IMG/VR virus record: IMGVR_UViG_3300033121_002140
Coordinates: 17,962 to 81,961 of that record
Length of the DNA stretch: 64,000 nucleotides
Strand: one strand, 5' to 3'
Source: a virus
Lineage: Duplodnaviria; Caudoviricetes
The translations under genes were made by a program, and so were the position numbers. Position 1 is the stretch's first letter. Each line of letters begins with the position of its first letter. This document shows, piece by piece, positions 8,682 to 61,773 of the stretch. The notes below the pieces were generated by a model. That model was not told where the DNA came from. It was given only the letters and a program-made list of their open reading frames with translations, and made no database searches.

Positions 8682-9632
8682 ATGGTCGTCTATAAGGTGA
8701 CGCACCGCACAACGGGCTTGTGCTACGTCGGAAAGACGCGCGGTACGGTCGAGAGCAGGTGGCGGGCGCACGTCCGCGATGCGCGGCGGGGCTCGCGGAC
8801 GCGTTTCCACGCGGCCATCCGCGAGCACGACGCCGATGCTTTCGATGTCGAACAGGTCGAGCAGTGCGCCGACGCTGGCGAGCTCGACCGTGCGGAACGC
8901 AGATGGATCGAGCTGCTGGGGACGACGGATCCTGCGCGCGGCTTCAACAGCACGACGGGCGGACAGAACGGCGCGCTATGCGAGACGTCGAGACGCAAGA
9001 TCTCGGTCGCGCTATCGGGCAAGTCCAAGGACGAACGCCACCGCGCGCAGCTCTCCCACGCGCAGTCCCAAAAGACGGGGCCCCTGAACAGCTTCTTCGG
9101 TCGCACGCACTCGGAGGAGACGAAGCGACGCATCGCGGATTCGATGCGAGGTGAGCGCGGGCCCTGTTTCAATCGAACAGGAGAGCGCCACCCGATGTGG
9201 GGCACGCAGCACAGCGATGAGGCCCGCCAGAAGATGGCTGCGGCGCATGTAGGCAGGTCTCTCACCCACGAGCACGCGAGAAGCATCTCCGAGGGCCATG
9301 GTCGACGCAACGCTGCTCTGCACGAAAAACGGGCCAGGGCGCTTGAGCTCCTCGACGCAGGGCTGACACGACGGCAGGTGCGCGAGGAATTGGGCGTGAC
9401 GCTAGGGTTCATTTACGGCGCGACGTCGCGCCGTAACACTGCGCGTCGCGCCTCAGGCCTGCAGGCCAGCGGCGATGAACATGCGGGCGTTGTAGGGCCC
9501 GAAGCACCCGTCGAGCAGGGCCTGGGGAGGCACCCAGACGACCCTGCCGGCCTCGGTCGTCCGGATGGGCCCCCTGCAGTCGTGCCAGTCGGCCTCGAAG
9601 GTCGTGGTGACGAAGCCGTCGTGCTCCTCTGA
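8682..9632 (+). CDS. GIY-YIG homing endonuclease with NUMOD3 repeats and C-terminal HTH
   Basis: VYKVTHRTTGLCYVGKT...RW..H, FNSTTGG, HSEETKRRI, HSDEARQKM. Confidence 0.88.
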   Translation: MVVYKVTHRTTGLCYVGKTRGTVESRWRAHVRDARRGSRTRFHAAIREHDADAFDVEQVEQCADAGELDRAERRWIELLGTTDPARGFNSTTGGQNGALCETSRRKISVALSGKSKDERHRAQLSHAQSQKTGPLNSFFGRTHSEETKRRIADSMRGERGPCFNRTGERHPMWGTQHSDEARQKMAAAHVGRSLTHEHARSISEGHGRRNAALHEKRARALELLDAGLTRRQVREELGVTLGFIYGATSRRNTARRASGLQASGDEHAGVVGPEAPVEQGLGRHPDDPAGLGRPDGPPAVVPVGLEGRGDEAVVLL

Positions 9633-9923
9633 CTCATAGACGAACCGCAAGGCGCGCGGATCGACCGTGAGCCCAGTCTCCTCCAGCAGCTCGCGCGCGG
9701 CAGCCTCGGCCAGGTCTTCCCCGGGCTCCACCTTGCCGCCCGGACAGCCGAAGTCCGTGGGATCGTGCTTGCGTGAGACCGCGAGCACGCGGCCCATGTG
9801 CCTGATCAGCACGCAAGCCGCACGTTTTGACCCAGGTTCGTCGTTGCGATCTGTGACCTGCACGATGATCATCTCCTCCTCCAGGAGCCCCCGCACGGCG
9901 GCACGAAGGAGGTCTGACCTCAT
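9453..9923 (-). CDS. NUDIX hydrolase with N-terminal LRAAVRGLLEE tag
   Basis: Nudix box GGKVEPGEDLAEAAARELLEETGL. Confidence 0.92.
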   Translation of the reverse strand: MRSDLLRAAVRGLLEEEMIIVQVTDRNDEPGSKRAACVLIRHMGRVLAVSRKHDPTDFGCPGGKVEPGEDLAEAAARELLEETGLTVDPRALRFVYESEEHDGFVTTTFEADWHDCRGPIRTTEAGRVVWVPPQALLDGCFGPYNARMFIAAGLQA

Positions 9924-10315
9924 CGTGCGATTCCTCGGGTCATGTCCTCGCGGCGCGCCGCGAGCTCGCGCGTGACCTGGGTGGACAGGTCTGCTCGCAC
10001 CAGGCCGATCACGCGGCCGTTGTCTGCCAGGGGCTTGAAGCGCGGCGGCTGCCCGTCCGGAGCCTCCGTGACGTTCGCCTCGGTGGCCTCCAGCACGTCC
10101 TTGACCGCGTCCACCACGTCCTCGCAGACGACGGCCGCGAGCTTCTGCTTGACCACGACGCCCAGCAACGGGCACGCGATCTGCCCGGCTGCGTCGACCG
10201 CTGCTCCTGCCAGCACGGGGTCGACCCTACCGTCGACGCAGCCCTGCAGGGTGCCGCAGGCGAGCGCGACCGCGAAGAAGGCCGCGTGCGCGGCCAGCCA
10301 CCTCGAAAATCTCAT
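9920..10315 (-). CDS. Putative lipoprotein
   Basis: Basic N-terminus, hydrophobic stretch, lipobox-like LQGC. Confidence 0.55.
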   Translation of the reverse strand: MRFSRWLAAHAAFFAVALACGTLQGCVDGRVDPVLAGAAVDAAGQIACPLLGVVVKQKLAAVVCEDVVDAVKDVLEATEANVTEAPDGQPPRFKPLADNGRVIGLVRADLSTQVTRELAARREDMTRGIAR

Positions 10316-10334
10316 GTCGAAGACCTCCCATCGC

Positions 10335-10341
10335 TAGGTAT
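10335..10341 (-). promoter_or_regulatory. Putative late-promoter heptamer
   Basis: ATACCTA 19 nt before ATG 10315, with GGGAGG RBS in between. Confidence 0.55.
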
Positions 10342-10433
10342 GGGGCGGTGCCATGACGGCCACAGCACGGTCGCGATCAGGTACAGCAGCCTGCCTGCCT
10401 CACGCGGGCACCTGCCCTTTTCGCAGGACTGGC

Positions 10434-10748
10434 TCAAGTCGACTGGCCCAGGGCCTGGCCGAGCGAAAACCCGAGGTTGAAGCCCAGGCCAGATCCCAGG
10501 TCGCACGTCGCTGGGACGCAGGCATCATGCCGAGGACGCTGCACCGTGAACAGCGTCGTGTGCCCGCAGCCCAGGCACACGTGCTCGTACACGCCGTCGG
10601 GTAGGACGATCATGGACGGCGGCGTATGCCCGCTGTGGCGGCAGGGACTGGGACCGGGCAGGTCCCCCACACGACGAAGGCCTCCCGTGCGCCGTCGTCG
10701 GGCCTCCGCAAGCTTCTGCACAGAGATCCACGCATTGGTTGCCAACAT
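10434..10748 (-). CDS. Hypothetical Cys/His (Zn-binding-like) protein
   Basis: CRHSGHTPP...HVCLGCG. Confidence 0.55.
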   Translation of the reverse strand: MLATNAWISVQKLAEARRRRTGGLRRVGDLPGPSPCRHSGHTPPSMIVLPDGVYEHVCLGCGHTTLFTVQRPRHDACVPATCDLGSGLGFNLGFSLGQALGQST

Positions 10749-15701: not shown

Positions 15702-16356
15702 CCTGGGCAGGGCCCGCGTGATGGGCACGACCGCGGCGGCGCGCACGGCGACGAGGCATGGCCGGCATCACGGGCTCGGGCGGGCGACGCCGCGGATACT
15801 CTCGGACGGGCTCGTCGTCGCCGAACGGGTCGAGGTCCACCTCGACCATCGCGTCGTCCGCCAGCTGGCCCACCTCGATGCTCTCCTGGGCTTGACCCTC
15901 CTGGGCCTGCTGGTCGATCCCTGCATGCTGATCGCGTAGAGCGTCGATCTTCAGCTGCTGCCCCCTGAGGTAGCGCCTGCGCAGCTCCTGCGTGATGATG
16001 TCATGCTCTTGGTCGCGGCCCTCGGCGAGCGCCGCCGAGATCAGCTCTGTGAGAGGCCGGGTCCGTCTGTTGCGCGCCAGAGCCGCCGTGACCTGCATGC
16101 TCAGCAGCAACCGTGCCTTGATCCGAGACAGGGCCTGGGACAGGGGAACGGACGGATCGTCCTCGTCCGAGCACTCGAGCGATCCGCACGGCTTGTCGTC
16201 CATGCGCTGCACGAGCAGCGCATACAGCGCAAGCACCTCATCCGGGGTGAACCTCACCTCGATCGTGCCAGGCCAGTGTCCGGCACGCTTGTCGCAGCAG
16301 CCCCCGTCCGAGTCCATCTTTTCTTCCATCACCACGTGCACCTTTCGATCCGACAT
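15697..16356 (-). CDS. Hypothetical protein
   Basis: 219-aa ORF in gene-dense minus-strand run. Confidence 0.6.
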   Translation of the reverse strand: MSDRKVHVVMEEKMDSDGGCCDKRAGHWPGTIEVRFTPDEVLALYALLVQRMDDKPCGSLECSDEDDPSVPLSQALSRIKARLLLSMQVTAALARNRRTRPLTELISAALAEGRDQEHDIITQELRRRYLRGQQLKIDALRDQHAGIDQQAQEGQAQESIEVGQLADDAMVEVDLDPFGDDEPVREYPRRRPPEPVMPAMPRRRARRRGRAHHAGPAQV

Positions 16357-16373
16357 TTGGTTGGCCCTTCCTC

Positions 16374-16814
16374 TCAGGATCCGGTCGGGCCCTTGATCCT
16401 TGCCTTGACGACTGCGCCGTCCGGCAGCTGCATCAGGGTCGTGCCCTGTGTGCCCTGCTCCAGCAGCACTGCTTCCTCATGCTTGGGTGGCTGTTCGTTC
16501 TCTGCGCCAGGAAACGCGCGGCGCGAGGCCTCCACCGCGCGCTCGACCAGCGCATCCACCGCAGCGACTGCTCGCTGCCGCAGCGCCTGCTGGAGCTTCG
16601 TGCTGCTGTCGAAGGCCTCGTGCACTGCTGGATCGAGCTCGAACCTGGACCCATCCTCGACCGCGCTGAGCTGCGCTGTGTACACGGTACGTGTGCCCCC
16701 GCCCAGGACCGTGCGCCTGTTCTCCTCGATCACCTGGACCGCGACCACGTCCTGCTCTTGGAGCAGGACGAGGAACAGCACCTGGCCCACCGAGAACTGC
16801 CAGTCCTGCGTCAT
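16374..16814 (-). CDS. Hypothetical protein
   Basis: MTQDWQFSVGQVLFLV...; ATGA coupling. Confidence 0.65.
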   Translation of the reverse strand: MTQDWQFSVGQVLFLVLLQEQDVVAVQVIEENRRTVLGGGTRTVYTAQLSAVEDGSRFELDPAVHEAFDSSTKLQQALRQRAVAAVDALVERAVEASRRAFPGAENEQPPKHEEAVLLEQGTQGTTLMQLPDGAVVKARIKGPTGS

Positions 16815-17272
16815 CGGGACCTCTTCTTGGAGGAAGAAGGCGTCTCTGGGCTGGGCTCAGCCTGCTCCAGGACGACGTCGAGGAACGCGCTCGGATCCGG
16901 GGGCGCCCCCGGATCCGCCTCCTGCCCGGCGGCATCGAAGCGCTGGACTGCGAGCTCGGGCATGGGCACCGACGTGGGCACGACCACGAAGTCAGGGGCC
17001 GCATCACCCAGCGGGACTCCCAGCTCCACGCACACCTGCTGTAGCTTGTGCCAGAGCCTGGACTCCACGATCGACCTGCCAGTGGCAGTGGCGAGGGACT
17101 GGCTCACGGTCCGTGAGCCGTCCGGCGGCAGCACGATCCCGAACAGGTCCCTCATGTGGACGGCGTCCGCCGCCGTGAGCCTGAGGCTCGCGACAGGCCT
17201 GGGCCTGGTGTCGACGTGCTCAGGCCGCGTCTTCCTGCGGTCGGAGGCCTTTCTTTTCCTCGAGGTCGCCAT
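16811..17272 (-). CDS. Hypothetical protein
   Basis: MATSRKRKASD...; start uncertain. Confidence 0.6.
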   Translation of the reverse strand: MATSRKRKASDRRKTRPEHVDTRPRPVASLRLTAADAVHMRDLFGIVLPPDGSRTVSQSLATATGRSIVESRLWHKLQQVCVELGVPLGDAAPDFVVVPTSVPMPELAVQRFDAAGQEADPGAPPDPSAFLDVVLEQAEPSPETPSSSKKRSR

Positions 17273-17307
17273 CGCTCTTGATCCTACTGGGCCCGCGGCC
17301 CGACGGA

Positions 17308-17586
17308 TCACTCCTCGGGGCCTTGAAGGGCCTCGCGGAACGTGTCGGCCGCGTCCCTGTGCGCGATCTCGCTCTCGATCTTCAGGATCCGCATGACGCT
17401 CTTCAGGGTCTTCAGGTCCACCTTCTCGGCGAACTCGTCGTCCAGGGTCCGCATGTCCTCCCTGATGCCGTCGATCTGGCCCTCGAGCATGTCGCGCCGC
17501 TCGACGTACTCCTTGACGGCCTTCTTGAGCTCATCGAGCTCCGCTGGGTCCATCGCCTCGATCTTGTTCACAGCACACTTGGCCAC
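17308..17586 (-). CDS. DUF2312/GapR- or T4 DsbA-like small dsDNA-binding protein
   Basis: ELKKAVKEYVERRDMLEGQIDGIREDMRTL...VDLKTLKSVMRILK. Confidence 0.6.
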   Translation of the reverse strand: MAKCAVNKIEAMDPAELDELKKAVKEYVERRDMLEGQIDGIREDMRTLDDEFAEKVDLKTLKSVMRILKIESEIAHRDAADTFREALQGPEE

Positions 17587-18185
17587 TAGATCACCTCGTC
17601 ACATGACTGTAGCATGCTGTGCGCCGCCTGTTTCTTCTTGCCAGAGGAGATGTTTGCTCTGTGCTCTGCTGTCAACGCTCGACCCGTCAAGGCAACAGAG
17701 ATCTTCGCTCTCACAGACGGATCAGTCATGACCTGCGTGCTTCCCATGCTGATCTTCCGTCGAGTTTCTCTGCTGAGCTTTCGTCCTATGGCAGCGGCAC
17801 GCATCTTTGCTCGACTCTCTGCGCTCACTGCACGACCTCGCTTGGCGTCGCCGATCTTTTCGCGAGTCGCTTTTGAGTGTGCATATCCACACGTACCATC
17901 ACCGCCGCTGGTCTCATTGTAGCCCTGGGTACCGTTGGCTCGTGTTGCAGCGATCCAATCTACCTCTGCTGCTTTTGCCTCGAGCTCAGTGTCGAATGTC
18001 TCAAGCAGGACGTGGATCCAGGCATCATCACCGTGCTTTCGAATCGCTCGGTGAAATGCTGTCGTCGAACCGCTTTTCGCAGCTGCTACGTGCATCTTCC
18101 AGCGAGCCATCATGTCACGGCTTGTCCAACCGATGTAGCGCTTTCCCGTCTTGATGCAGAGGTGACAGTAGACAGTAAATCTCAC
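17586..18185 (-). CDS. GIY-YIG homing endonuclease with NUMOD3 repeats
   Basis: VYCHLCIKTGKRYIGWT, GYNETSGGDG, HSKATREKIG; GTGA coupling; visibly lower GC. Confidence 0.88.
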   Translation of the reverse strand: MRFTVYCHLCIKTGKRYIGWTSRDMMARWKMHVAAAKSGSTTAFHRAIRKHGDDAWIHVLLETFDTELEAKAAEVDWIAATRANGTQGYNETSGGDGTCGYAHSKATREKIGDAKRGRAVSAESRAKMRAAAIGRKLSRETRRKISMGSTQVMTDPSVRAKISVALTGRALTAEHRANISSGKKKQAAHSMLQSCDEVI

Positions 18186-19288
18186 AGTGCCTCGATGGTC
18201 CGCACAGCGTCGACGTATGCCTTGACGTAGGGATGGTCCTTGGGCAGGCCTGCCTTCAAGGCGGCCTCGGCCTGCGCGGTGAGGTTGGCCGCGTACACCT
18301 TCTTCATGGCGGCCCTGACGCGACGCAGGACCTCCTCCCGCGCGGCGTCGGCTTCCTGGCCCTGCAGGGCTCGCAGCTTGTCGAGCCCGGGCAGCCTGCG
18401 GCCCACGACCCCTTCCACGTCCTCGAAGCTGCGGGCCCTGAGCACCACCTTGGCCTTCGCGACCACGTCGCGTAGCGTCTTCTTGATCGCCGTCTGGCCG
18501 TCGTGGGCCAGACGGCGAGCGACGGGCGAATCCCGCAACGCGGCCCGCACCTTCCTGCTCGTCAGCACCTGCGCGAGCGCGGGCCTCTTCTGTGCCTCCG
18601 CGTCCTCGCTGATGACATGACCCAGGAAGACCCCGCCCTCGAACGCCCACGTGTCCATGCCCGGGTCCTCACGGCGTGACCACTTGTCGCCGCTGCCTGA
18701 CCCTCCGTGCCCGTACGTCTGCTTGACGCGGGCGACGAAGCGCTCGACGGCAGGGTTGCCGCCGCCGAGCACGTTGATGACGGCAAGCGCCGCACCGGGG
18801 GAACGCGCGACCATGCCCGCGCTCAGAAAGGCCCAGGGCGCGAACATGAACGCTGCCGCCATGACGTCGTTGCCCAGCAGCGCGCCCTTCGTGGCCCCAT
18901 AGACGTCCGAGTAGCGCTGCCTGATCGCGTCCAGCCTGCGCTTTTCCTCGGCGAAGATGTCGGCGTAGTCGCTCGACAGCGCAGGCACCAGCGTCGTCGC
19001 GGCTGCCTCGAAGGCGACCTTGACGGCCGACTGTGCCCGGGCCGACAGCTCGGCGGTCTTACCCGCCGCGGTCTTCACGACGTCCGTGAAGGGCTTCACG
19101 AAGGTCGCATACAGCTTGTCGGGGCTGCCAAAGTGCATGCCGTACGGCATCTCACCCATGGAGGCGCCGTACAGGTCGCCCACGCCGCCATCGTCCTCGA
19201 CGAGGCGCGGCTCCTTGGTGGACAGCGCATGTCCATGCCGGGTCGCGGTCTCGATGTTCTTGGCTGCCTCACGCAGGCGTCTAGCCAT
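18182..19288 (-). CDS. Hypothetical late protein (candidate virion internal protein)
   Basis: 368 aa; preceded by CTAGTTA; MARRLREAA start, internal VISE. Confidence 0.65.
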   Translation of the reverse strand: MARRLREAAKNIETATRHGHALSTKEPRLVEDDGGVGDLYGASMGEMPYGMHFGSPDKLYATFVKPFTDVVKTAAGKTAELSARAQSAVKVAFEAAATTLVPALSSDYADIFAEEKRRLDAIRQRYSDVYGATKGALLGNDVMAAAFMFAPWAFLSAGMVARSPGAALAVINVLGGGNPAVERFVARVKQTYGHGGSGSGDKWSRREDPGMDTWAFEGGVFLGHVISEDAEAQKRPALAQVLTSRKVRAALRDSPVARRLAHDGQTAIKKTLRDVVAKAKVVLRARSFEDVEGVVGRRLPGLDKLRALQGQEADAAREEVLRRVRAAMKKVYAANLTAQAEAALKAGLPKDHPYVKAYVDAVRTIEAL

Positions 19289-19292
19289 GCCG

Positions 19293-19299
19293 TAACTAG
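19293..19299 (-). promoter_or_regulatory. Putative late-promoter heptamer
   Basis: CTAGTTA 4 nt before ATG 19288. Confidence 0.55.
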
Positions 19300-20015
19300 G
19301 CCGCGAGCTTGGCCCTGATCGCAGGCAGTGCCGCTGCGATCACGGAGACCTGGTACGCGTGCATGGGCGGCAGCCGGTCGACCGGATGCCAACGCACGGC
19401 CACGTTCTCGCCGTCAGCGACCCGGGCCTCGGATCCGGTCGATCCGACGGCAGGCCGGGCCAAGAAGACCCTGACGGTCTTGTCCTCGTCGAAGGACTCG
19501 GTCCGGGTGGGCGGCAGCTCCTCCTCGGCCACCACCGCGAGCCCTGTCTCCTCGAGCGTCTCGCGGACCGCGCAGTCCCGTGGGTCCTCGCCCTCGTGCA
19601 CGTGCCCCTTGGGAACGCCCCAGGTGGGCTTCTTGAGCCACGGCTTGACCAACAGCACCTCTGGGCCCTCTGGTCCTGCCCGGTACGTCAGGCATCCGCA
19701 CGACAGGGTCCTACGCTTCGTCTTCAGGGCCTCGAGCGAGGCCCTGCGCGACGCATGCTCGGCATTCACCTGCTCGACGAGCCCGGCGGGCGCGGGCGGG
19801 GACCTGGGCGGAGCTGGCACGATGTTTGATGCCGACAAGTGCATGACCCTGCCGGTGTCAAGCACGACGGCCCACGTGCGCTGGCCCCGAGGCGCACCGT
19901 CGGGCTTGTCGGCCTTCCACTCCTGCCTGAGTACCGTGCCGAGGTCGTTGCCGACGAAGACCCTGTCACCGCCCCTCGGCTTGACATGATCGTCGTCGCT
20001 GCTAGCGGTCCGCAT
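19296..20015 (-). CDS. SH3-like domain fused to NUDIX hydrolase (Ap4A-hydrolase-like)
   Basis: SCGCLTYR...VLLVKP...WGVPKGHVHEGEDPRDCAVRETLEETGL; N-terminal GGDRVF...LGTVL...WAVVLDTG. Confidence 0.88.
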   Translation of the reverse strand: MRTASSDDDHVKPRGGDRVFVGNDLGTVLRQEWKADKPDGAPRGQRTWAVVLDTGRVMHLSASNIVPAPPRSPPAPAGLVEQVNAEHASRRASLEALKTKRRTLSCGCLTYRAGPEGPEVLLVKPWLKKPTWGVPKGHVHEGEDPRDCAVRETLEETGLAVVAEEELPPTRTESFDEDKTVRVFLARPAVGSTGSEARVADGENVAVRWHPVDRLPPMHAYQVSVIAAALPAIRAKLAA

Positions 20016-20021
20016 GGGCCC

Positions 20022-20050
20022 ATCGTACGCCGCGCGCCTCACGCACGACA
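20022..20050 (-). promoter_or_regulatory. sigma70-type promoter, leaderless
   Basis: TGTCGT-N17-TACGAT-N6-ATG. Confidence 0.65.
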
Positions 20051-20119
20051 CCACGCCGTGATCGGTGCCAGAGAACCCATGAAACCCGTGCCATGGCAAC
20101 CACCATGTTGTTTCGCAGG

Positions 20120-21175
20120 TTAAGCGTGGGCCCCGTCGAAGATGCGACGGACCCGTTCCAGCTGCTGGTCGTTGAGCCTGCGCAGGGCGCGCTCCTTGTC
20201 GAGGGCCAGGTCGCGCCCGGCCTTCTTGCTGACGTTGTCGGCCAGGCCCGTCTCGAACCCATGCAGGACCTGCGCGAGCATCTCGTCCCTGTCATACGCG
20301 CCCGCTGCGTCGAGCGTGTTGGCCAGGCCCACGATCCCGTGCGCGAGGTCGGCCACCGTGACGTTGTCGGGATCGAGGCCCGGATGCCGTCGCAGCACTG
20401 GGTCAGGCGTGTAGCCCGGGCCTAGCAGGTGCTCCGCGATGTCGGCCAGGAAGGTCCTGAAGCTGGTCGACACGGTCCTGACGTCGACCCCCGTCCTGAA
20501 CCGGGACGGGACGCGTTCCTTCCCGCGGTATCGTGCCAGCACGCCCTCTCCCCCGATCGACAGCGTCAGGAAGTCGCCCAGGGCCGCGTACAGGTTGCCC
20601 GTCACGTAGCCCTTGATGCCCCGCTCAGGCGTGTAGCGGCCTGCGGCCCACTCGGCACTGTGCGGGTGCGTGACCACCGTGTCCACCTGGACCAGGCCGC
20701 CGTCGGGCATGACGAGGATGACGCTGAGCGGGTCCGACCCTGAGCCGCCGGAGCGCTTTGTGCCCAGCGTCAGGTCCACGTCGACCCCCTCGGGCGACTC
20801 CTCGCGCAGGTACTTGGCCATGAGCTCCGTGTACCTGCGCAGCGACGCGGCCTGGCCCGCCCTGCGATCTCCCTTGGAGGCGTCCACGGGCAGCGACACG
20901 AGGTAATCGATGTCGCCGTAGGTCGCGTCGGGCCTGTCGACCTCGTCAGCCGCCGCGTGGGTGGCAGAGCCTGAGGCGCGCACGGGTTGCACTGGCTCGG
21001 TGCCGTGCTCCTCGAGCCAGGCGTTCCATCCCGCCAAAAAGCGCTCGTAGGCACGTGAGGCCTGCCTGACCAGCGCAGGCGTGAGGTCGCGCCTGCGGTC
21101 GGCGGGCACCTTGAGCCCGCCCTCAAAGAGAGCACGACGGACGATGGCGCGGAGCGCGCCCAGCCTGATCTGCAT
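20120..21175 (-). CDS. Pol-beta superfamily nucleotidyltransferase-like protein with N-terminal tag
   Basis: MQIRLGALRAIVRRALFEG; SGS...YGDIDYLV...LVQVD. Confidence 0.7.
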   Translation of the reverse strand: MQIRLGALRAIVRRALFEGGLKVPADRRRDLTPALVRQASRAYERFLAGWNAWLEEHGTEPVQPVRASGSATHAAADEVDRPDATYGDIDYLVSLPVDASKGDRRAGQAASLRRYTELMAKYLREESPEGVDVDLTLGTKRSGGSGSDPLSVILVMPDGGLVQVDTVVTHPHSAEWAAGRYTPERGIKGYVTGNLYAALGDFLTLSIGGEGVLARYRGKERVPSRFRTGVDVRTVSTSFRTFLADIAEHLLGPGYTPDPVLRRHPGLDPDNVTVADLAHGIVGLANTLDAAGAYDRDEMLAQVLHGFETGLADNVSKKAGRDLALDKERALRRLNDQQLERVRRIFDGAHA

Positions 21176-21223
21176 CTTGGACCCTGGGCACGTCGACGTG
21201 TCATGCGGCGTCGAGTGCGTGGT

Positions 21224-21231
21224 ATAGCTAG
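21224..21231. promoter_or_regulatory. Putative bidirectional late-promoter element
   Basis: ATAGCTA on + (6 nt before ATG 21237) and CTAGCTA on - share the palindrome TAGCTA, between divergent genes. Confidence 0.55.
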
Positions 21232-21236
21232 GCCAG

Positions 21237-21833
21237 ATGCGTGCGGACAGACCAAGGCGGATCGGGTTGGTGGCCATGAGCGCAAAGCCGTTCACGGCAG
21301 GCCATGACAGCATCATCCAGATGGCAGCGAGCGAGTGCGACGAGGTGCTCGTGTTCGTGTCACTCGCGGACCGACGCCGGCCCGGTGAGTTCCCGATCAT
21401 GGGCACTGACATGGCGACGATCTGGCGGGAACTGGTGGAACCCGGCCTGCCCACGAACGTCACGATCGAATATGCCAGCAACCCGATGGCCAGGATCTGG
21501 GCGACCCTGGGCGCCGCGAACGAGTCGGGCTCGCCCGACTCGTTCGCGATCTATGGGGACGAGCGCGACACCGCGGCACGCTTCGGTCCGGCAGCGCTCG
21601 CGAAGTATGCCAGCGGTCTGCAGGCCTCAGGCAGGATCTCGTTTCGGACGCCGCCCAGGATCACGTCAGGCACAGAGATGCGGAAGGCGCTGGCGGATGG
21701 GGACCTGGACGCGTTCAGGGCAGGCATGCCAGCCTGGTTGGACGCCGACCGGGCCTGGCAGGTCCTGCGGGCCCATCGCACGAACGAGGAACTCCTGCGG
21801 AGCTTCGTCAGGCGCTCGATAGCTCGCGCCTGA
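21237..21833 (+). CDS. HxGH-type (cytidylyltransferase-like) nucleotidyltransferase
   Basis: AKPFTAGHDSII, VLVFVS, ITSGTEMRKAL; C-terminal ELLRSFVRRSIA. Confidence 0.8.
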   Translation: MRADRPRRIGLVAMSAKPFTAGHDSIIQMAASECDEVLVFVSLADRRRPGEFPIMGTDMATIWRELVEPGLPTNVTIEYASNPMARIWATLGAANESGSPDSFAIYGDERDTAARFGPAALAKYASGLQASGRISFRTPPRITSGTEMRKALADGDLDAFRAGMPAWLDADRAWQVLRAHRTNEELLRSFVRRSIARA

Positions 21834-23877
21834 CGAAGGCCTCGAGGCGCTCGAGCGGCGCGCCCAGGGCATCGGGCCCACGTTCCTTCACGCGCTCCCT
21901 GAGCTTCTCGACGAGCTCCTCGGCCATCTGGTCGAGCTCGGATGCGAAGGTCTCCGACCTCCGCAATGCCGCCGCGAGCTCCTCGAAGCGTCGGAGGGCC
22001 TGGGCCCTGTGCCCAGGCCCCAGCAGGACAGAGACGAGCTCGTCGGGCCGGTCGGTCACGAGCTCACGCTCGACCGTGCGCCATGCCGTGTGACCGCCCT
22101 GCTTGTTGGGCCTCCGCGCCTGCACGACCCGGTGCAGGCCCCTGTCGGAGTCGACCACGTAGCGTTCGCGATCGAGCTCGCCCTGCTTTCCTGGGAACGC
22201 GCGCCCAGACGCATGACGTGCGATGACGTCCAACAGCATGTTTCGGACCACACCCTTCACTGTCGAATATTCGGGATGACCCTTCACGGGTGAAGGCCCG
22301 TAGCGCGTCCAGCCTAGAAGCCCGACGTCGCCGACCATCGCGTCCACCTGGACCGCGCCGGACTCCAGCGGAAACGCGATGCTCACGATGTTGGAGCCCA
22401 CCCTGCGCAGCTCGATGCCTGGGCGTGCAGCGACGAGCGCGGCGTACAGGCCTTCCCTGCCGCCCGCATGCTCCATCGCGAGGTCGACGTCGCCCATCGG
22501 GTCCTTCTTCCATGTCGTGCCGATGGGCGTGATCTTCAGGGCGCCTGCACGGACCAGGAGGCCTTCGATCTCTGGCCAGGCTGCCTGCAACCCTGCCCTC
22601 GTCACAGGCCCAACGTCTGAGAACGAGTGACCGCCCTCGGCCATCAGGCGCCGACGTGCCTCGACGAGCCCAGCTCCACCCTCGTGCGTGAAGAACCCGA
22701 GGATCCTGTTCATCGGTGCGAACGCACCCGTGAGCTTGTAAGGCCTGCCCTTGTGCATGAAGACGATGCCCTCGATCGGGCTGATGTCGTCCAGGCGCGT
22801 GAGCTTGTCCTGCACGGCAGCGAGGATGGCCTTCGCCTGGGGCGCGCGCGAGCGCCCTAGGGCCGTCATGGCCTTCGCGGTGGCAGCTCGAAGGCGCGCG
22901 GCCTCGGCCGAGGGATCGCTGACGAAGAGGGAGCTGACACCCCTGAGCACGCCCACCGCGAACTGGCGCATCGTGCGCTCGAGCGGGGCCAACGCCTGTT
23001 CGACCAGCCTGCGCTCGTCATCCACCAGCGCCTTCGACGTGGCGTACATGTCAGGTGCCATCTTCTTGATGGCCGTCAGGGTTGGTGCTCCAGGCACGCC
23101 TGCGATCCTCGCTGCGAGCGCGGCATGCAGCGCGTCCGGAAGGGTCATGTTCGACTCTTCGTCCAAGATCGACTCGATCCTGCGGTGGACGTACTCGCCG
23201 ATCGTGGCGCCGTCGTCCAAGCGGACCTGGGCCATGGCGGCATCGAGCCCGGACAGGGCCTGCGCCATCACAGTCCCGTCCACGAGGCGATGGAGCTCCA
23301 CGGCGGCCCAGGGATGCAGCGTCCATCCCGTCTCACGGGTCCCGGCACGCATCGTGTCGATCCATCGCGCGAGCCGCGTGCCGCCCAGGCCTTCCTCCTT
23401 GATAGGCCGGCCGGTCGCAGGGTCGACGACGAAAACGGGCTCCCTGTGGAACACGACGTTGTTGCCGTCGTACCTGATCGTGTTCGGCGCCTCGGCGTAC
23501 ATCACCTCGATCGAGTACCACCTGTCGCCTGCCGGACCGAAGATGTCGATCCGAGCGTCGGCAGGCATGGCCCTCAGGCCGCGCTCAAGCGCGGCGAAGG
23601 CGCCTGTCAGCGCGGCCTCGATCACACCGCGGCCTGAGAACCTGCGCGCCAAGGCGGGGGCGTCCATGCCGCCCCCCTTGATGTCGGACGAGTTGCGGGC
23701 AGCACGGACTCCGCCCGCTTTCTCGTTCCAGGTGAAGACCAGGTTGACGCCGTCGGTCTTTTCGGACACGCCCTCAAGCCTGGCCTCCGCGATCGAGGTG
23801 ACCACGTCCTTGAGGTCGTCGAAGGTCAGATCCCAGTCCTCGACCAGGTGAGACAGGTGTCCGCTGGCGCCGCCCAT
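21808..23877 (-). CDS. Two-domain protein: N-terminal ligase-like KxDG domain (DUF6267-like) plus C-terminal Pol-beta nucleotidyltransferase-like domain
   Basis: GGASGHLSHL, SEKTDGVNL, IEGIVF, YKLTGAFAPMNRILG; then IGTTWKKDPMGDVDLAM...VQVDAM. Confidence 0.7.
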   Translation of the reverse strand: MGGASGHLSHLVEDWDLTFDDLKDVVTSIAEARLEGVSEKTDGVNLVFTWNEKAGGVRAARNSSDIKGGGMDAPALARRFSGRGVIEAALTGAFAALERGLRAMPADARIDIFGPAGDRWYSIEVMYAEAPNTIRYDGNNVVFHREPVFVVDPATGRPIKEEGLGGTRLARWIDTMRAGTRETGWTLHPWAAVELHRLVDGTVMAQALSGLDAAMAQVRLDDGATIGEYVHRRIESILDEESNMTLPDALHAALAARIAGVPGAPTLTAIKKMAPDMYATSKALVDDERRLVEQALAPLERTMRQFAVGVLRGVSSLFVSDPSAEAARLRAATAKAMTALGRSRAPQAKAILAAVQDKLTRLDDISPIEGIVFMHKGRPYKLTGAFAPMNRILGFFTHEGGAGLVEARRRLMAEGGHSFSDVGPVTRAGLQAAWPEIEGLLVRAGALKITPIGTTWKKDPMGDVDLAMEHAGGREGLYAALVAARPGIELRRVGSNIVSIAFPLESGAVQVDAMVGDVGLLGWTRYGPSPVKGHPEYSTVKGVVRNMLLDVIARHASGRAFPGKQGELDRERYVVDSDRGLHRVVQARRPNKQGGHTAWRTVERELVTDRPDELVSVLLGPGHRAQALRRFEELAAALRRSETFASELDQMAEELVEKLRERVKERGPDALGAPLERLEAFVRRELSSA

Positions 23878-23881
23878 CTGC

Positions 23882-24835
23882 TCAGCTCATGACCTCGAAC
23901 CTGGGCTCGCCCTTGGAGATGTACAGGAAACGCAGGTGATCGTTCAGCTCCGCGTGCGGGACGATCATGAACTGCTGCGGGCTGACCAACACCACGCCTG
24001 CCACGTTGTCGAAGACAGTGCTGGCCTGAACGCCCCTGAGCCACACGTCCCTGATGAAGGTCCTTGGCTTCCTGAAGGCCGGATGCGAGAACGTGCCCGC
24101 GAACAGGTCGCACACCTCGACGCCCATGTCAGAGTCCGACAGACCCAGCTCCCGTGAGGTCCTCACGTAGGTGGCAACGTCGATCTCACGCTCGGAACCG
24201 TTCCATGACACCTTGCGCTTGCACTTATTGGCGTCCCCGATCATGTGCTTGACGTACTCCATCACCTGCAGGAGGCCCACCGGGTTCTTGTGGGTCTTGC
24301 CCACGATACGGCCCTGTGACAGCTCCCCGTTCATGACCATCGGAATGTCGTGCTCGATGAAGTCCTCGACGTCGAAGGACTTGATGCCGGTCTCAGACTC
24401 ATACGCGGGCAAGGCGCTCATGTCGATGCGTGAAAAACCTTGCCGCAGCTGCCTGCAGATCTCCTCGATCTGCTGCCTGATTCCCTCGACCGCACGCCGG
24501 CCCTCGACCCCGGGCCTGATCATGTCGCTCGCGTTGGGTTCCTTGACCTCCCATTTGTTGCCCTGGGCATCGATGACGTCGTACGAGACGCTGTGACCCT
24601 GGATCTCGCCACCCAGTTCCCAGGCCAACTTCAATTCGCCTGGTCCAGTGTCTCGGTCGCCCGCTCGGTACTTGTGCGGGTTGCGTGGGCTCCAGTCGAC
24701 CCAGACGCCCGTGGGGGGCATGGTCCGACGGGTCGAGGCAGACGCCTTGGTTGATTGGACCCGCGTGCCCGTGTCACGCTCGACGAGCACGAGTGAGACG
24801 TAGCGTCGAAACAGTGGGAGTGTGTGTTGTTCCAT
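23882..24835 (-). CDS. Putative PD-(D/E)XK restriction-endonuclease-like protein with N-terminal tag
   Basis: LFRRYVSLVLVE; GPGELKLAWELGG...SYDVIDAQGNKWEVKE. Confidence 0.6.
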   Translation of the reverse strand: MEQHTLPLFRRYVSLVLVERDTGTRVQSTKASASTRRTMPPTGVWVDWSPRNPHKYRAGDRDTGPGELKLAWELGGEIQGHSVSYDVIDAQGNKWEVKEPNASDMIRPGVEGRRAVEGIRQQIEEICRQLRQGFSRIDMSALPAYESETGIKSFDVEDFIEHDIPMVMNGELSQGRIVGKTHKNPVGLLQVMEYVKHMIGDANKCKRKVSWNGSEREIDVATYVRTSRELGLSDSDMGVEVCDLFAGTFSHPAFRKPRTFIRDVWLRGVQASTVFDNVAGVVLVSPQQFMIVPHAELNDHLRFLYISKGEPRFEVMS

Positions 24836-24872
24836 GTGTCTCCGCGCGACCAGCACGGTGCGCTGCCTGGAC

Positions 24873-24879
24873 TAAGTAA
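24873..24879 (-). promoter_or_regulatory. Putative late-promoter heptamer (variant)
   Basis: TTACTTA 37 nt upstream of ATG 24835. Confidence 0.4.
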
Positions 24880-24887
24880 TGCCCTTA

Positions 24888-24941
24888 GGTGGCACTGTGG
24901 AACTACCACCGCGACCGGTGTTTTTTACACCAATGCCGGTC
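24888..24941. other. Two adjacent intergenic hairpins
   Basis: GGTGG...CCACC (24888-24910); GACCGG...CCGGTC (24913-24941) enclosing GGTGT-TTTTT-ACACC. Confidence 0.4.
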
Positions 24942-24977
24942 CAGCAGGTTCACGCTTGACGCGACGTCGACGAGGCT

Positions 24978-25607
24978 TCACTTTCGGTGAGGTTTGATCG
25001 GGATCGGAACGGGCGGGGACGCGTCTTCCGCCTTCTTTGGCGAAGGAGCGCCGCCGCTCTTTTTCACGACCACATTCGGCTTGATGGAACGGCGCTGCTG
25101 CCCGCCTGAACCCTGGCCCTCGCCTGAGTCGACGCCGTTCTTTTTCATCGCGACCGCGGGCTCAGGATCGGCAGGATCGACTGCCTGCTGTCCCGGGACC
25201 TCTCCCGTCACGATCTGCGCGATTCCCTTCAGGAAGGCCAGCAGCGCGACTCTCTCGGGCTTCTTGAGGCTCTTGACGTATGCCTCCATCGCATGCTTGA
25301 TGTCATCGTCACGGAAGGAACGACCCGACCGGATCGCGTTCAGCTTGCCCACGATGTTGTCGAAGCTCACCTCGCCCGTCTTGAGCTCTTCGGCGTCGGC
25401 GTCCATGGTCTTCGACGGTGTGCCGTCTTCGGCTCCGTCGTCGTCCGTGACGCCGTCGTCCATGCCCCCTGCGAGCGCAGCCGCAGTCGCGTCCTGGCTG
25501 TCCTTTTCTGACAGGCCCTGACGCGCGAGGTCGGCCTTGATGCCGTCCTCTGCCAGAAGACGACCCAGCACATCACCCAACAGTGCACCGGTCCTGATCA
25601 CGGGCAT
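24978..25607 (-). CDS. Acidic hypothetical protein with N-terminal tag
   Basis: MPVIRTGALLGDVLGRLLAED; NIVGKLNAIRSGRSF. Confidence 0.7.
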   Translation of the reverse strand: MPVIRTGALLGDVLGRLLAEDGIKADLARQGLSEKDSQDATAAALAGGMDDGVTDDDGAEDGTPSKTMDADAEELKTGEVSFDNIVGKLNAIRSGRSFRDDDIKHAMEAYVKSLKKPERVALLAFLKGIAQIVTGEVPGQQAVDPADPEPAVAMKKNGVDSGEGQGSGGQQRRSIKPNVVVKKSGGAPSPKKAEDASPPVPIPIKPHRK

Positions 25608-25816
25608 CAGCGACCTCCTCGAACCGGAGACCCATACACGGTCCTGTTCACGGGCGCCTCGCGTCCGCGCCGGTTCAGGCGGCGCTGGGGCGTCTCACCC
25701 AGGACCTTGGCGTCCTCCTGCCTGATCCGGCGCTCGCCCAGCAGGATCGCGTCCATGAACTTGTCGAAGGTGAACGCTCCTTCGTCCATGAGGGCCGAAT
25801 CGACGTCGTTGTCCAT
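25607..25816 (-). CDS. Small hypothetical late protein
   Basis: Preceded by ATAGCTA. Confidence 0.55.
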   Translation of the reverse strand: MDNDVDSALMDEGAFTFDKFMDAILLGERRIRQEDAKVLGETPQRRLNRRGREAPVNRTVYGSPVRGGR

Positions 25817-25821
25817 GACGA

Positions 25822-25828
25822 TAGCTAT
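25822..25828 (-). promoter_or_regulatory. Putative late-promoter heptamer
   Basis: ATAGCTA 5 nt before ATG 25816. Confidence 0.6.
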
Positions 25829-25837
25829 GCAGCGTCC

Positions 25838-26299
25838 CTAGGGACGTGCAAACGTGAGGGTCAGCGTGCAGATTCCTGCCGAAGTGACAGAACTGACCTC
25901 GACCTGGCTGGGCGTGCCTGCGGCGAGCCTGAGAGCGGGGGATCCTGGGTCTGCCTGACACACGGTGGTGACGCCGTAGGACCTGCCGGTCGCACCCACC
26001 GCGTCCATGACCACGCCCAGGGCCTGATCGCACGCAGTCCTGAGCTCCACCACGAGCTGGCCGGGCTGGCACATGATCCGCAGCAGCTTTCCCACCACCG
26101 TCGCGTCCACGGCTGGATCCCCTGACGCCCGGGAGACTGCGACCATGGGCGATGAGTCCTCGACCTCCTCCATGGTGCCCTGCTCTTCCGGCTCGACATG
26201 TTCTTCGTCGAGACCAAGCACGCGGCCCTGCAGCTCCCGGCTCATGAGCAGCACTTCCCTGTTGGGCTCAATCGTCAGGCGTCGTCCCTGGTCCTCCAT
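25838..26299 (-). CDS. Hypothetical protein
   Basis: GAGGAG RBS before ATG 26299; start uncertain. Confidence 0.55.
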   Translation of the reverse strand: MEDQGRRLTIEPNREVLLMSRELQGRVLGLDEEHVEPEEQGTMEEVEDSSPMVAVSRASGDPAVDATVVGKLLRIMCQPGQLVVELRTACDQALGVVMDAVGATGRSYGVTTVCQADPGSPALRLAAGTPSQVEVSSVTSAGICTLTLTFARP

Positions 26300-28892: not shown

Positions 28893-28898
28893 CGTCGG

Positions 28899-28905
28899 TA
28901 AGTAT
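28899..28905 (-). promoter_or_regulatory. Putative late-promoter heptamer
   Basis: ATACTTA 6 nt before ATG 28892. Confidence 0.6.
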
Positions 28906-28925
28906 CGGGCGAGCGTCCGCGCGTG

Positions 28926-44057: not shown

Positions 44058-44464
44058 AGGGGCTCCTTATACTCAAAAGGAGCTAGCATCGACACATGGC
44101 ATGCATCTACTGCATCACCAACAAGACAAATGGAAAACGCTACGTGGGCAAAACGACAGGGTGTCCCGCAGAACGTTGGCGTGGGCACCCGGAGGCACAG
44201 CACGGCAGGCGCGGCATCGTTGTCCTGCAGCTTTCGTGCCAGGATGACGGCGGGCGAGCCGTCCTCGGCGCTGGAGGCATCTGACTGGGCACCCGGCAGC
44301 AGGCCTTCCTTGCCCAGGATGTCCACGAGCGACGCAGCGTCGTTCACGACGTGCCACAGCTCCACCATGGAGCCCGTGGGCACGAAGCGTGCCCATGTCG
44401 TTGGGTCTGTCGGATCGAGCGCCTCACTGAGAAAGGCCCTGACGAGGCAGCGCAGCTCGTACAT
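44054..44464 (-). CDS. ART-like protein with N-terminal tag; C-terminus probably replaced by a rearrangement
   Basis: MYELRCLVRAFLSEA; LWHVVNDAASLVDILGKEGLLPG; last ~40 codons are antisense to a GIY-YIG fragment. Confidence 0.5.
   Translation of the reverse strand: MYELRCLVRAFLSEALDPTDPTTWARFVPTGSMVELWHVVNDAASLVDILGKEGLLPGAQSDASSAEDGSPAVILARKLQDNDAAPAVLCLRVPTPTFCGTPCRFAHVAFSICLVGDAVDACHVSMLAPFEYKEPL
44066..44094 (-). promoter_or_regulatory. sigma70-type promoter of the glycosyltransferase
   Basis: TGTCGA-N17-TATAAG-N8-ATG. Confidence 0.5.
44096..44190 (+). pseudogene. Truncated GIY-YIG endonuclease remnant
   Basis: MACIYCITNKTNGKRYVGKTTGCPAERWRGH, then homology stops. Confidence 0.75.
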
Positions 44465-44471
44465 GCAGGGA

Positions 44472-44478
44472 TAAATAG
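44472..44478 (-). promoter_or_regulatory. Putative late-promoter heptamer
   Basis: CTATTTA 7 nt before ATG 44464. Confidence 0.55.
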
Positions 44479-44493
44479 CTCTCCGGGCGCGCG

Positions 44494-53480: not shown

Positions 53481-53861
53481 CTACACCCAGGCGCGGTCCA
53501 CGGGACGCCGCCGCTGTTCTTTGACATCACGCAGGCCCGCGCCGGGTTCGTCCGACTCCGTGCCGTCGTCCCAGAGCACGTGCGTGAGCTCGCCCTCGTG
53601 CCCGACCGCGCGGCCCTTCCGGGTGCCCGAGCCGTCTGTCACCCTGTAGCCCTGCGGCTTCGTGGACGAGGTCTTGGGAGTCGACACCTTGGTCGCCGCG
53701 ACAGGGTGTGCCTGCCCACCGGCTCCTTGGGCACCGCTGCCCTGGTTTCCGGTCATGGCAGGCTGCTGCGCCCTTTCTTTCTCGATCGCCGGGTGCACCA
53801 CCTCGCGGACCAGTGCCCGCAGCAGCGCCTCAATCCTCGTCTCCGTGGTCCTGGCCGTCAT
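53481..53861 (-). CDS. Hypothetical protein with N-terminal tag
   Basis: RIEALLRALVREVV. Confidence 0.55.
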   Translation of the reverse strand: MTARTTETRIEALLRALVREVVHPAIEKERAQQPAMTGNQGSGAQGAGGQAHPVAATKVSTPKTSSTKPQGYRVTDGSGTRKGRAVGHEGELTHVLWDDGTESDEPGAGLRDVKEQRRRPVDRAWV

Positions 53862-60423: not shown

Positions 60424-60784
60424 GGCTCGACCATACGGCCACGGGCGAGGGTTGTGTCAGCCCTCGGGTCCGATGAACCTCATACAGGCGCAGGACTATG
60501 GGCTCGGGTGCCATCATCCACACGACGCGGCCGAGCAGCAACACGCACCACATCGCGTCGCCCGCGCTGGAGGGGGCGATGGGCACAACGCCTAAAACGA
60601 GGATGGGGTGACCAATGACACAGTTTTCAGTGATTCCCTGTGTCAGGCTGGGACCATCAGGTCCATCCCTGCGGGCCGCCCAAAGGTAGCACGGGTTCCC
60701 GAGCTGGCAGCCCAGCTGGCTCGCCCCAGGCCGTCGAAACAGCACGCAGCCCGGGCACAGGGTCAATGCCCGTGCCTGATCCAT
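60380..60784 (-). CDS. Hypothetical protein
   Basis: ORF filling the gap; weak resemblance to the small SH3-like family. Confidence 0.4.
   Translation of the reverse strand: MDQARALTLCPGCVLFRRPGASQLGCQLGNPCYLWAARRDGPDGPSLTQGITENCVIGHPILVLGVVPIAPSSAGDAMWCVLLLGRVVWMMAPEPIVLRLYEVHRTRGLTQPSPVAVWSSHEDSHLYPWDPGQR
60430..60459 (-). promoter_or_regulatory. sigma70-type promoter, leaderless
   Basis: TGACAC-N18-TATGGT-N6-ATG. Confidence 0.55.
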
Positions 60785-61374
60785 GATTCAGCCGCAGCAT
60801 GCATCCTCGGGTGCGCATGCGCCAGCACCTCGCGCCAGGGCGCGTCGTGGAGCGGTCTGAGCCCGGCGATGTCAGCCATGAAGACCCAGCGAAACGGACG
60901 GCCCTCACGGAGCAATGAAGGGTTCAAGATGAAGAGCCGCAGCGCCTCCGCGATGGACTCGCCCAGGTGAGGCTCGTAGCCGCTGACGCAGGGCTCGTGC
61001 TTGAACACACGCTGTGCAGCGAGCCACAGGTCCCGATAGCCCAGGGCCTCATGGACGTGGTGTCCGGTCTCGTGGGCCGTGACGCCCACAGCCGTGAGGT
61101 CGGCCTTGAAGCCCGGAAAGGACCAGCTGAAGCCCGGCGTCCGCACTGGCGTCACCGATTTCTTGAGGTCCACGAAGACGCGCGAGGGCGAGGTCCCATC
61201 GCTCGGGACGTACAGACCCCGGTCCTTCCACTTGCCCTTGATGGGCGGGGGACCCGGCACGAACTGGGGATGGGCGATGCCGTTGAGGCTCAGGAACTCG
61301 CGGCATAAGGCGACCGCGTCCGAGAAGGCCTGCACCTTCTGATACGACCCAGGGTCGGCGATGTAGGGAGGCAT
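60763..61374 (-). CDS. Putative zincin-like metallopeptidase
   Basis: TAHETGHHVH (HExxH) followed by ESIAE. Confidence 0.55.
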   Translation of the reverse strand: MPPYIADPGSYQKVQAFSDAVALCREFLSLNGIAHPQFVPGPPPIKGKWKDRGLYVPSDGTSPSRVFVDLKKSVTPVRTPGFSWSFPGFKADLTAVGVTAHETGHHVHEALGYRDLWLAAQRVFKHEPCVSGYEPHLGESIAEALRLFILNPSLLREGRPFRWVFMADIAGLRPLHDAPWREVLAHAHPRMHAAAESWIRHGH

Positions 61375-61380
61375 GAGGGC

Positions 61381-61409
61381 ATCATACCACGCCGCTGCGT
61401 GCGCCGACA
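61381..61409 (-). promoter_or_regulatory. sigma70-type promoter, leaderless
   Basis: TGTCGG-N17-TATGAT-N6-ATG. Confidence 0.7.
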
Positions 61410-61416
61410 TGCCCGC

Positions 61417-61773
61417 TCACCTGTTCCGTGTGCTCCGAATCGACTTGATCATGGAGACGATCGACTGGGTCGCGGCCTGTTCCACGTCAGCCCCGAACGT
61501 GTCGGTGAAGTCCTGAGCCGTGAGCTCCTCCACGACCGAACCGTCAATGAGGTCCGATCGGACGATGGCCATGTACGCGGCCTCTGTCATCCGCTCGAGC
61601 GCCGAGATGAACTTCTCATCCTCGCCTAGGGCGTCGGAGACTGTGTTCACCAGGCGCGTCTCGCTGGTCCGAGCCACGTTGCCCATCCCGGTGCCCGTGG
61701 GCGTGCCCTCGTCGTCGAAGGCGGCCTCACGGATGATGCGCCTGAGCTGCTCCCGGGTGATCCTGATCGCCAT
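61417..61773 (-). CDS. Hypothetical protein with N-terminal tag
   Basis: MAIRITREQLRRIIREAA. Confidence 0.7.
   Translation of the reverse strand: MAIRITREQLRRIIREAAFDDEGTPTGTGMGNVARTSETRLVNTVSDALGEDEKFISALERMTEAAYMAIVRSDLIDGSVVEELTAQDFTDTFGADVEQAATQSIVSMIKSIRSTRNR

Follow-up and report, generated by a model that had tools for sequence, protein, structure and literature searches.

A candidate prohead-core targeting leader shared by unrelated proteins of an uncultured, T4-related jumbo phage lineage

The window analysed here, a 64-kb (64,000-nucleotide) stretch at the 3' end of one 81,961-bp viral contig, encodes a set of otherwise unrelated proteins that begin with the same short peptide. This tag is strictly N-terminal, occurs across the phage's lineage and is separable from the protein that follows it. 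We consider it probable, from sequence comparison, that the tag is a prohead-core targeting leader that works like the capsid-targeting sequence (CTS) of phage T4 internal proteins. In such a scheme the hydrophobic face of the tag's helix would dock on the scaffolding core during head assembly, enclosing the attached protein in the prohead, where a prohead protease of the gp21 family would cut after the Glu of a terminal [LI]-x-E motif and free the mature protein inside the head. By analogy with T4, injection of the DNA may then carry some of the freed proteins into the host.

The contig is by its sequence that of an uncultured jumbo phage distantly related to T4. The record is rated 24% complete (CheckV), the GC content of the window is 66–67% and nearly all genes lie on the minus strand. 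The contig was compared with four complete relatives of 298–369 kb, among them G004 (298 kb) and G001 (369 kb); of the contig's 42 large proteins, 23 recur in G001 and G004 in collinear order. An alignment-based scan of IMG/VR provided 19 loci on contigs of up to 369 kb and 35–62% GC. Judged by the capsid protein of the relatives' lineage, the nearest cultured phages are the distant T4 relatives immuto, Mel-JY01, RM378 and RsoM2USA, while the best match overall is an uncultured 484-kb phage.

A short peptide heads unrelated proteins

The pattern L-R-x-[LIVFMTAY]-[IV]-[RKSA] occurs 15 times in 131 called proteins, versus 2.75 ± 1.6 times in shuffled sequences. Ten of the 15 copies lie within the first 30 residues, where 2.5 would be expected under uniform position, and an eleventh comes after an internal Met; a 98%-identical database protein of 351 amino acids (aa) begins at this Met, which marks it as the true start. 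The shared N-terminal peptide that an earlier, sequence-only reading of this DNA had proposed is therefore real.

The consensus from 37 tags, M-[KR]-[LIV]-[TRS]-[LVI]-[GS]-[QE]-L-[RK]-x-[IL]-[IV]-[RK]-E-[AE]-[VIL], comprises a short strand-like segment, M-[KR]-h-[TR]-h-[GS], and then an amphipathic helix, [QE]-L-[RK]-x-[IL]-[IV]-[RK]-E. The helical part is strongly amphipathic (hydrophobic moment 0.89) and flexible linkers follow the tag. Tags are 14 to about 20 residues long, leaders in the window span 14–21 residues, and some tagged proteins have a leader of 80–92 residues. The start codon stands exactly seven codons 5' of the anchor Leu in 6/12, 14/27 and 21/30 six-frame matches, a count that is independent of gene calls and concerns a position outside the scoring matrix described below.

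Codons at the conserved Leu (CTT, CTC or CTG) and Arg (CGN or AGG) differ between genes, which points to selection on the peptide and not on the DNA. This bears on the proposal that the motif is a nucleotide-level signal at gene starts (for translation initiation or as a promoter, with near-leaderless late mRNAs) or a chance product of Arg/Leu-rich proteins. AT-rich boxes do lie directly upstream of several tagged genes, and Leu, Arg and Ala are abundant in high-GC genomes; however, the codons vary freely at conserved positions, the same peptide occurs in relatives of 35–62% GC, and the reversed control yields about one match, with the shuffled control far below the observed count as given above. 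The codon variation, together with conservation across very different GC, already refutes this explanation, which retains next to no probability.

The sequence-only reading had also suggested scanning N-termini genome-wide. A scoring matrix built from the window tags only found 17 and 22 N-terminal matches in the two relatives G004 and G001, and after one round of refinement across three genomes it found 19 and 24, versus 1 on reversed sequences. Tag matches were present at all 19 IMG/VR loci (33 versus 1 under the null), where further unrelated open reading frames (ORFs) begin with the same peptide. Scanning the relatives with the refined matrix revealed no C-terminal class of tag. The cultured far-T4 phages RM378, RsoM2USA and Mel-JY01 gave essentially no matches in a tag scan, and Flavobacterium phage immuto showed about four shorter tags. 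In immuto (NC_055915.1) the short tag is found on at least gp080 (113188–113946) and gp094 (102880–103359), with the start codon five, not seven, codons 5' of the anchor Leu. This cultured phage is a possible experimental model; a search for a virion proteome of immuto found none.

All-against-all BLASTP detected no similarity between tagged proteins past the tag, the one matching pair aligning over 22 residues only, and their Pfam content is diverse or absent, so the description of the carriers as unrelated holds. The alternative of a paralogous family that inherited an N-terminal domain by descent was rejected, as similarity stops at the tag and the protein bodies occur with differing leaders or with none. 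The majority of tagged proteins are acidic, 60–200 residues long and of no known family; those in the relatives include a PRTase, a HAD-like protein and a 1037-aa repeat protein. About two-thirds are genome-specific. Homologs across G001 and G004 exist for 10/32 tagged genes versus 97/562 others; faster turnover of tagged genes than of other small genes, a possibility considered, is thus not seen.

Copies of the tag in the window

Copies in the window were scored with the three-genome refined matrix, and coordinates are start positions on the minus strand. The weak copies, in which the spacer 5' of the anchor Leu is shorter or longer than usual, pass only a relaxed definition that matches about 1% of internal 32-residue stretches.

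21122–21175, minus strand: strong leader of 18 residues on the 351-aa Pol-beta-type nucleotidyltransferase (gene 20120–21175), ending L-F-E before G-G-L-K; score 20.2
29879–29935, minus strand: strong leader of 19 residues on a very acidic 220-aa protein (gene 29273–29935), ending L-I-E; score 27.5
31990–32052, minus strand: strong leader of 21 residues, counted from the ATG at 32052, on a protein of ~160 aa (gene 31570–32058), ending L-S-E; score 25.9
38906–38947, minus strand: strong leader of 14 residues on a protein of ~71 aa (gene 38732–38956, start 38947), ending I-R-E; score 33.5
39319–39360, minus strand: strong leader of 14 residues on a 132-aa protein (gene 38962–39360), ending I-K-E, with an AT-rich box directly upstream; score 29.5
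41285–41326, minus strand: strong leader of 14 residues on a 193-aa protein (gene 40745–41326), ending I-R-E before Ala; score 31.4
61726–61773, minus strand: strong leader of 16 residues on a 118-aa protein (gene 61417–61773), ending I-R-E at residue 16, with an AT-rich box directly upstream; score 30.6
28564–28623, minus strand: moderate leader on a 408-aa protein (gene 27397–28623); score 13.1
28213–28251, minus strand: second, internal tag copy at residues 125–137 of the 408-aa protein, ending I-A-E before Ala
9879–9923, minus strand: weak copy with a short spacer on a 156-aa NUDIX hydrolase (gene 9453–9923; NUDIX E 7e-18); full-matrix score 0.7
24779–24835, minus strand: weak variant on a protein of ~317 aa (gene 23882–24835/24856); relaxed definition only
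44423–44464, minus strand: weak copy with a very short spacer on a 136-aa protein (gene 44054–44464); relaxed definition only
53802–53861, minus strand: weak variant on an ORF of ~126 aa (53481–53861) outside the gene calls, with coding-like third-position GC (GC3 0.84); score 4.2
25607, minus strand: unsupported copy; score −11
21796–21846, no strand assigned: perfect 13-bp inverted repeat, a terminator-like hairpin between convergent genes, outside the tag system

Fifteen copies had been listed from the sequence alone. Seven of these are strong and one is moderate (28623), four are weak (9923, 24835, 44464 and 53861), and the copy at 25607 and the two placed at C-termini were dropped; in addition, the copy listed at 32058 starts at 32052 and that listed at 38956 starts at 38947. 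The two 'C-terminal copies' (21833 and 21808) are an artefact of the inverted repeat. The convergent genes 21237–21833 (plus strand) and 21808–23877 (minus strand) both run into it, and each encodes F-V-R-R there because both strands of the repeat spell these residues. The leader at 29879–29935 is followed by an Asp/Glu-rich linker, has its start codon seven codons 5' of the anchor Leu and is also present on the homolog in G001.

The leader ends in a protease motif at a module boundary

Residue 14 is Glu in 30 of 37 tags. An [LI]-x-E motif ends exactly at this residue in 27 of 47 tags, versus a null of 1.1%, and ends 2–16 residues past the anchor Leu in 41 of 47, versus a null of 15–17%; the residue after the terminal Glu is Glu or Ala. 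The hydrophobic-x-E ending noticed in the earlier reading is thus borne out.

Evidence on the Glu that is independent of the matrix comes from the family of the nucleotidyltransferase (gene 20120–21175), which comprises 120 database clusters. In its leader-bearing homologs P1 is Glu in 103/103 and P3 is Leu or Ile in 96/103, the predicted cut site directly precedes an invariant G-G, and at least nine homologs begin exactly at the junction. AlphaFold places the leader apart from the domain as a helix (residues 5–15) with a predicted local distance difference test score (pLDDT) of about 55, whereas the pLDDT of the following domain is above 87. The Pol-beta-type fold was confirmed, and the confident domain (pLDDT 92.5) begins at the predicted cut. 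A search of cultured phages with the nucleotidyltransferase and one distant homolog (tblastn) returned no match. A cleavable junction before G-G inside a 689-aa protein was also considered; it was rejected because the protein has no BLASTP similarity to the nucleotidyltransferase and its first junction lacks Leu or Ile at P3.

The 193-aa protein (gene 40745–41326) is one of 395 members (E ≤ 0.001) of a family carried by phages, for which no Pfam model and no solved relative were found. Homology to most relatives begins at residues 17–21, just past the predicted cut. Of these relatives, 12 bear the tag described here and 20 lack any leader, with different leader types on others; one of those types also heads distant nucleotidyltransferase homologs. 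Some homologs begin with canonical tags. Invariant positions in the mature part (His, Glu-Asp, Arg, Asp and Glu) hint at an enzyme. An Arr-type ADP-ribosyltransferase, the lead offered by a language model, was not confirmed: neither Pfam nor the PDB backed it in 50 members of the family.

The 408-aa protein (gene 27397–28623) shows stronger codon bias than any other in the window, and 26 homologs of it lie on contigs of up to 345 kb; tblastn against cultured phages gave no match. Both its N-terminal and its internal tag are conserved to about 30% identity (17 aligned homologs), the latter being the second, internal copy reported earlier. AlphaFold predicts an isolated helix at residues 8–20, then about 40 disordered residues, and a lone helix at residues 119–138 that corresponds to the internal tag. 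The protein has only two [LI]-x-E sites (residues 13 and 137), both within tag copies; judged by the model, the product of a cut at residue 137 would be precisely the folded part. Its C-terminus was considered as a possible sigma-factor region 4 fold, which was rejected, as neither Foldseek nor PDB profiles gave a match.

The enzyme toolkit that had been read into the tagged set is partly upheld. The nucleotidyltransferase is established by its fold, and the NUDIX domain of the protein encoded at 9453–9923 is real, although its tag is weak. The ADP-ribosyltransferase-like and nuclease-like assignments are unconfirmed: for the protein encoded at 23882–24835 the restriction-endonuclease-like lead came from a language model with a score below 0.9, and Pfam gave no match. 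No support was found for SOD or Dps among the tagged proteins.

Tagged genes accompany a T4-type head module

Matches above Pfam thresholds identify, in each of the four complete relatives, one gp21-type protease (Peptidase_S77, E about 1e-25), one portal of the gp20 type (1e-76) and one capsid protein of the gp23 type (1e-65). Terminase comes first in the module, followed by portal, protease, scaffold-position gene and capsid. Three conserved small tagged proteins adjoin the portal and protease genes in all four relatives. The scaffold-position protein is acidic, 645–706 aa long and among the proteins richest in [LI]-x-E (19 sites versus 7.9 expected, 17 versus 6.3, and 12 versus 3.3). Using hhalign, no homology was found between the tagged head-module or scaffold-position proteins and T4 gp67, gp68 or gp22. 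The N-termini of the relatives' capsid proteins appear tag-like by eye, with I-R-E at residues 13–15, yet their matrix scores are negative.

Domain searches of the window proteins found no capsid, portal or protease gene. Collinearity with the relatives makes it reasonable, though inferred, that the missing three-quarters of the contig's genome holds the same T4-type head module. Near-identical copies of this phage's proteins also lie on a 165-kb contig, which might include the phage's own head module.

An AT-rich box occurs near 10/23 tagged genes versus 45/530 others (p = 1.8e-5). The box resembles a T4-style late promoter, and on this sequence evidence the tagged genes look co-regulated with the head genes; the label 'late' given earlier to the tagged proteins can be retained to the extent that this promoter-like box, common to tagged and head genes, implies it. 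The box has the form T-A-[CGT]-[CT]-T-A, lies 5–30 bases upstream of many tagged genes and is rare (0.13–0.24 per kb per strand). In the window it is located at 39361–39380, 61774–61795, 32059–32075 and 44465–44485, and the same box stands upstream of the G001 capsid gene (L052:9660–9690) and of the scaffold-position genes.

A protein of ~390 aa, encoded at 198890–200705 in G001 and at 193813–195216 in G004, is likewise among the richest in [LI]-x-E (14 and 13 sites), and one or two small conserved tagged proteins adjoin it. This locus is possibly another cluster of prohead-core genes, separate from the main head module.

The head module also bears on whether the tag serves a destination other than the capsid. 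The helix could dock or oligomerize on another phage-encoded hub, for example a chaperone, a site on the membrane or a factory for replication or transcription. Its generic amphipathic character with a high hydrophobic moment, the flexible linkers after it and the fact that no receptor for the tag was identified would all suit this proposal, which nevertheless leaves unexplained the invariant Glu and the P3 Leu/Ile at a module boundary, the fixed distance to the initial Met, the presence of tagged genes within the head module and the promoter-like box in common with capsid genes. We therefore judge a hub of this kind improbable.

A leader recognized by a modifying enzyme, as in ribosomally synthesized and post-translationally modified peptides (for example by radical-SAM/SPASM proteins), would be expected to look much like the tag, that is, one N-terminal leader on many unrelated small proteins. 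Radical_SAM (PF04055) is, however, absent from the contig and the four complete relatives, whereas 14/14 control genomes were positive, and the sole conserved partner of the tag is the gp21-type protease. The chance that the tag is such a recognition leader is accordingly very slight.

Weighing the prohead-targeting reading

The cleavable, T4-style capsid-targeting leader proposed in the sequence-only reading is the best-supported account of the tag, owing to the protease motif, the head module and the module boundaries; packaging and cleavage are the inferred part of it. Several points count against this account. The contig itself lacks the head module, its protease being deduced from relatives with about 40% protein identity to the contig. 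The proteins of the head module are, by sequence, only positional analogues of T4 core proteins, and in sequence the tag is not similar to the T4 CTS: scored with the tag matrix, the leaders of T4 IPI, IPII and IPIII reach −8 to −16. The [LI]-x-E statistic is partly circular because the refined matrix includes that Glu. Placement of the Glu varies, in that several window leaders lack Glu14 and have [LIVM]-x-E a few residues later, and in the 408-aa family the Glu position is sometimes Asp. The mature parts of tagged proteins are acidic (net charge per 100 residues of −4.7 versus −0.7), while T4 internal proteins are described as basic (PMC9026906). Finally, docking, cleavage, packaging and injection are computational proposals, and delivery into the host is pure analogy.

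The most substantial competing explanation is that the tag marks core or scaffold assembly factors, which are degraded at [LI]-x-E sites and leave the head, and not cargo for delivery. Three conserved tagged proteins reside within the head module, tagged proteins are mostly small and acidic like scaffolds, the 408-aa protein combines two tags with the strongest codon bias, and the T4 core proteins gp22, gp67 and gp68 also have N-termini bearing [LI]-x-E. Against this, the tagged folded enzymes (the nucleotidyltransferase, and the PRTase and HAD-like protein in relatives) have no obvious role in assembly, the genome-specific character of about two-thirds of the tagged proteins would be unusual for assembly factors, and the confinement of [LI]-x-E to the tags of the 408-aa protein indicates that it would be trimmed, not shredded. 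As an account of the tag in general this explanation is unlikely; for the conserved members in the head module it is possible.

If prohead targeting is indeed the function of the tag, the T4 principle is at work with a different signal in a widespread uncultured lineage of 300–370 kb phages, and the set of packaged proteins could be read from the genome. These proteins, most of them unannotated, would be candidates for early anti-defence or take-over functions, and the tag itself might serve as a packaging signal when these capsids are engineered.

The distribution of leaders invites a broader and more tentative proposal. In two cargo families the leader may be this tag, one of at least two other types or absent altogether, on which basis the tag could be one 'dialect' of a combinatorial address code across uncultured T4-related phages, in which the core of each lineage reads its own leader and cargo swaps leaders exactly at the cut site. 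We regard this as somewhat less than an even chance. If true, the leader sequence alone would predict the packaged, and possibly injected, proteins of uncultured phages; the predicted set here comprises the Pol-beta-type nucleotidyltransferase, the NUDIX enzyme and the 395-member domain family without a Pfam model. The exact module boundary at L/I-x-E shows a route for the exchange of cargo between phages.

Other genes and features of the window

Genes recognized in the window encode a DnaE-type polymerase, a polynucleotide kinase-phosphatase, a Thg1-GNAT fusion, an RlaP nucleotidyltransferase, a flap endonuclease, an endolysin and two NUDIX enzymes. A block of ~20 kb (16000–36000) is collinear with 160900–181000 of G001 and 166300–181600 of G004. 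It contains five tagged window genes and several highly codon-biased proteins of unknown family (18182–19288 and 29932–30666), and may be a second virion-related module. Gene 21237–21833, one of the few on the plus strand, matches HxGH-type nucleotidyltransferases (Citrate_ly_lig, E 1.4e-6) and is not among the codon-based gene calls. The inverted repeat at 21796–21846, into which it runs, is probably a two-way terminator.

Comparison with known systems

Short peptides that direct proteins into a shell are known outside phages. The cargo-loading peptides of encapsulins and the encapsulation peptides of bacterial microcompartments use an amphipathic helix and a flexible linker to bring unrelated enzymes into a protein shell, and encapsulin shells have the HK97 fold, as do phage capsids. 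Encapsulin peptides are mostly C-terminal, and the peptides of both systems bind shell protein and are not removed by a protease. The phage tag, in contrast, is strictly N-terminal and ends in a protease motif.

Among phages, the phiKZ-like group resembles the present lineage in that its members are giant phages with a gp21-related protease (gp175 in phiKZ, gp245 in SPN3US). According to the reviews, these proteases process numerous head proteins at a motif of three residues, cutting after its Glu, and a role in targeting proteins into the prohead has been proposed for the propeptides (PMC9026906, PMC7411985). The propeptides are long, however (111–130 residues in SPN3US), the phiKZ motif is S/A-x-E, and the text available from these sources reports no single short leader common to them. 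The lineage of the tag, moreover, has a T4-type gp23, gp20 and gp21 module that is detectable with Pfam.

The closest parallel is T4 itself. Reviews describe T4 gp21 as cutting after L/I-x-E, with gp22 cut at a Glu-Ala bond (PMC9026906), and the internal proteins and Alt as carrying N-terminal leaders of 10–19 residues that bind the prohead core and are then removed; the T-even internal proteins are presented there as a diverse set with only the leader in common (PMC9026906, PMC7411985, PMC3012670). Removal of the CTS of IPI, IPII, IPIII and Alt by gp21 goes back to Mullaney and Black (1996), as reviewed in the same three sources. In the T4 record the leaders of IPII, IPIII and gp22 begin M-K or M-L and end I-A-E before Ala. 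The tag and the T4 CTS are thus both short propeptides at the extreme N-terminus (14 to about 20 residues versus 10–19), both begin M-K (the tag also M-R) and end L/I-x-E followed by Ala or Glu, and both are found on otherwise unrelated, fast-changing proteins. The complete relatives and T4 also have in common a gp21-family protease, the order of portal, scaffold-position and capsid genes, and core proteins with similar N-termini.

The differences from T4, beyond the lack of sequence similarity discussed above, concern the form of the tag and the scale of its use. In form, the tag is longer than the T4 leaders and is defined by a strand followed by a helix. Each genome has about 20 tagged proteins versus four or five in T4, the cargo is on average acidic where that of T4 is basic, and a second internal copy or a leader of the 80–92-residue type is seen in some of the proteins. 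The literature search found no paper on this tag or on an expanded leader system in distant T4 relatives. The T4 CTS is the classic example of a phage signal that loads the head with proteins to be delivered alongside the DNA. It is already in use for packaging foreign proteins (according to PMC9026906). The principle is known from T4; the sequence of the tag and the breadth of its use are new.

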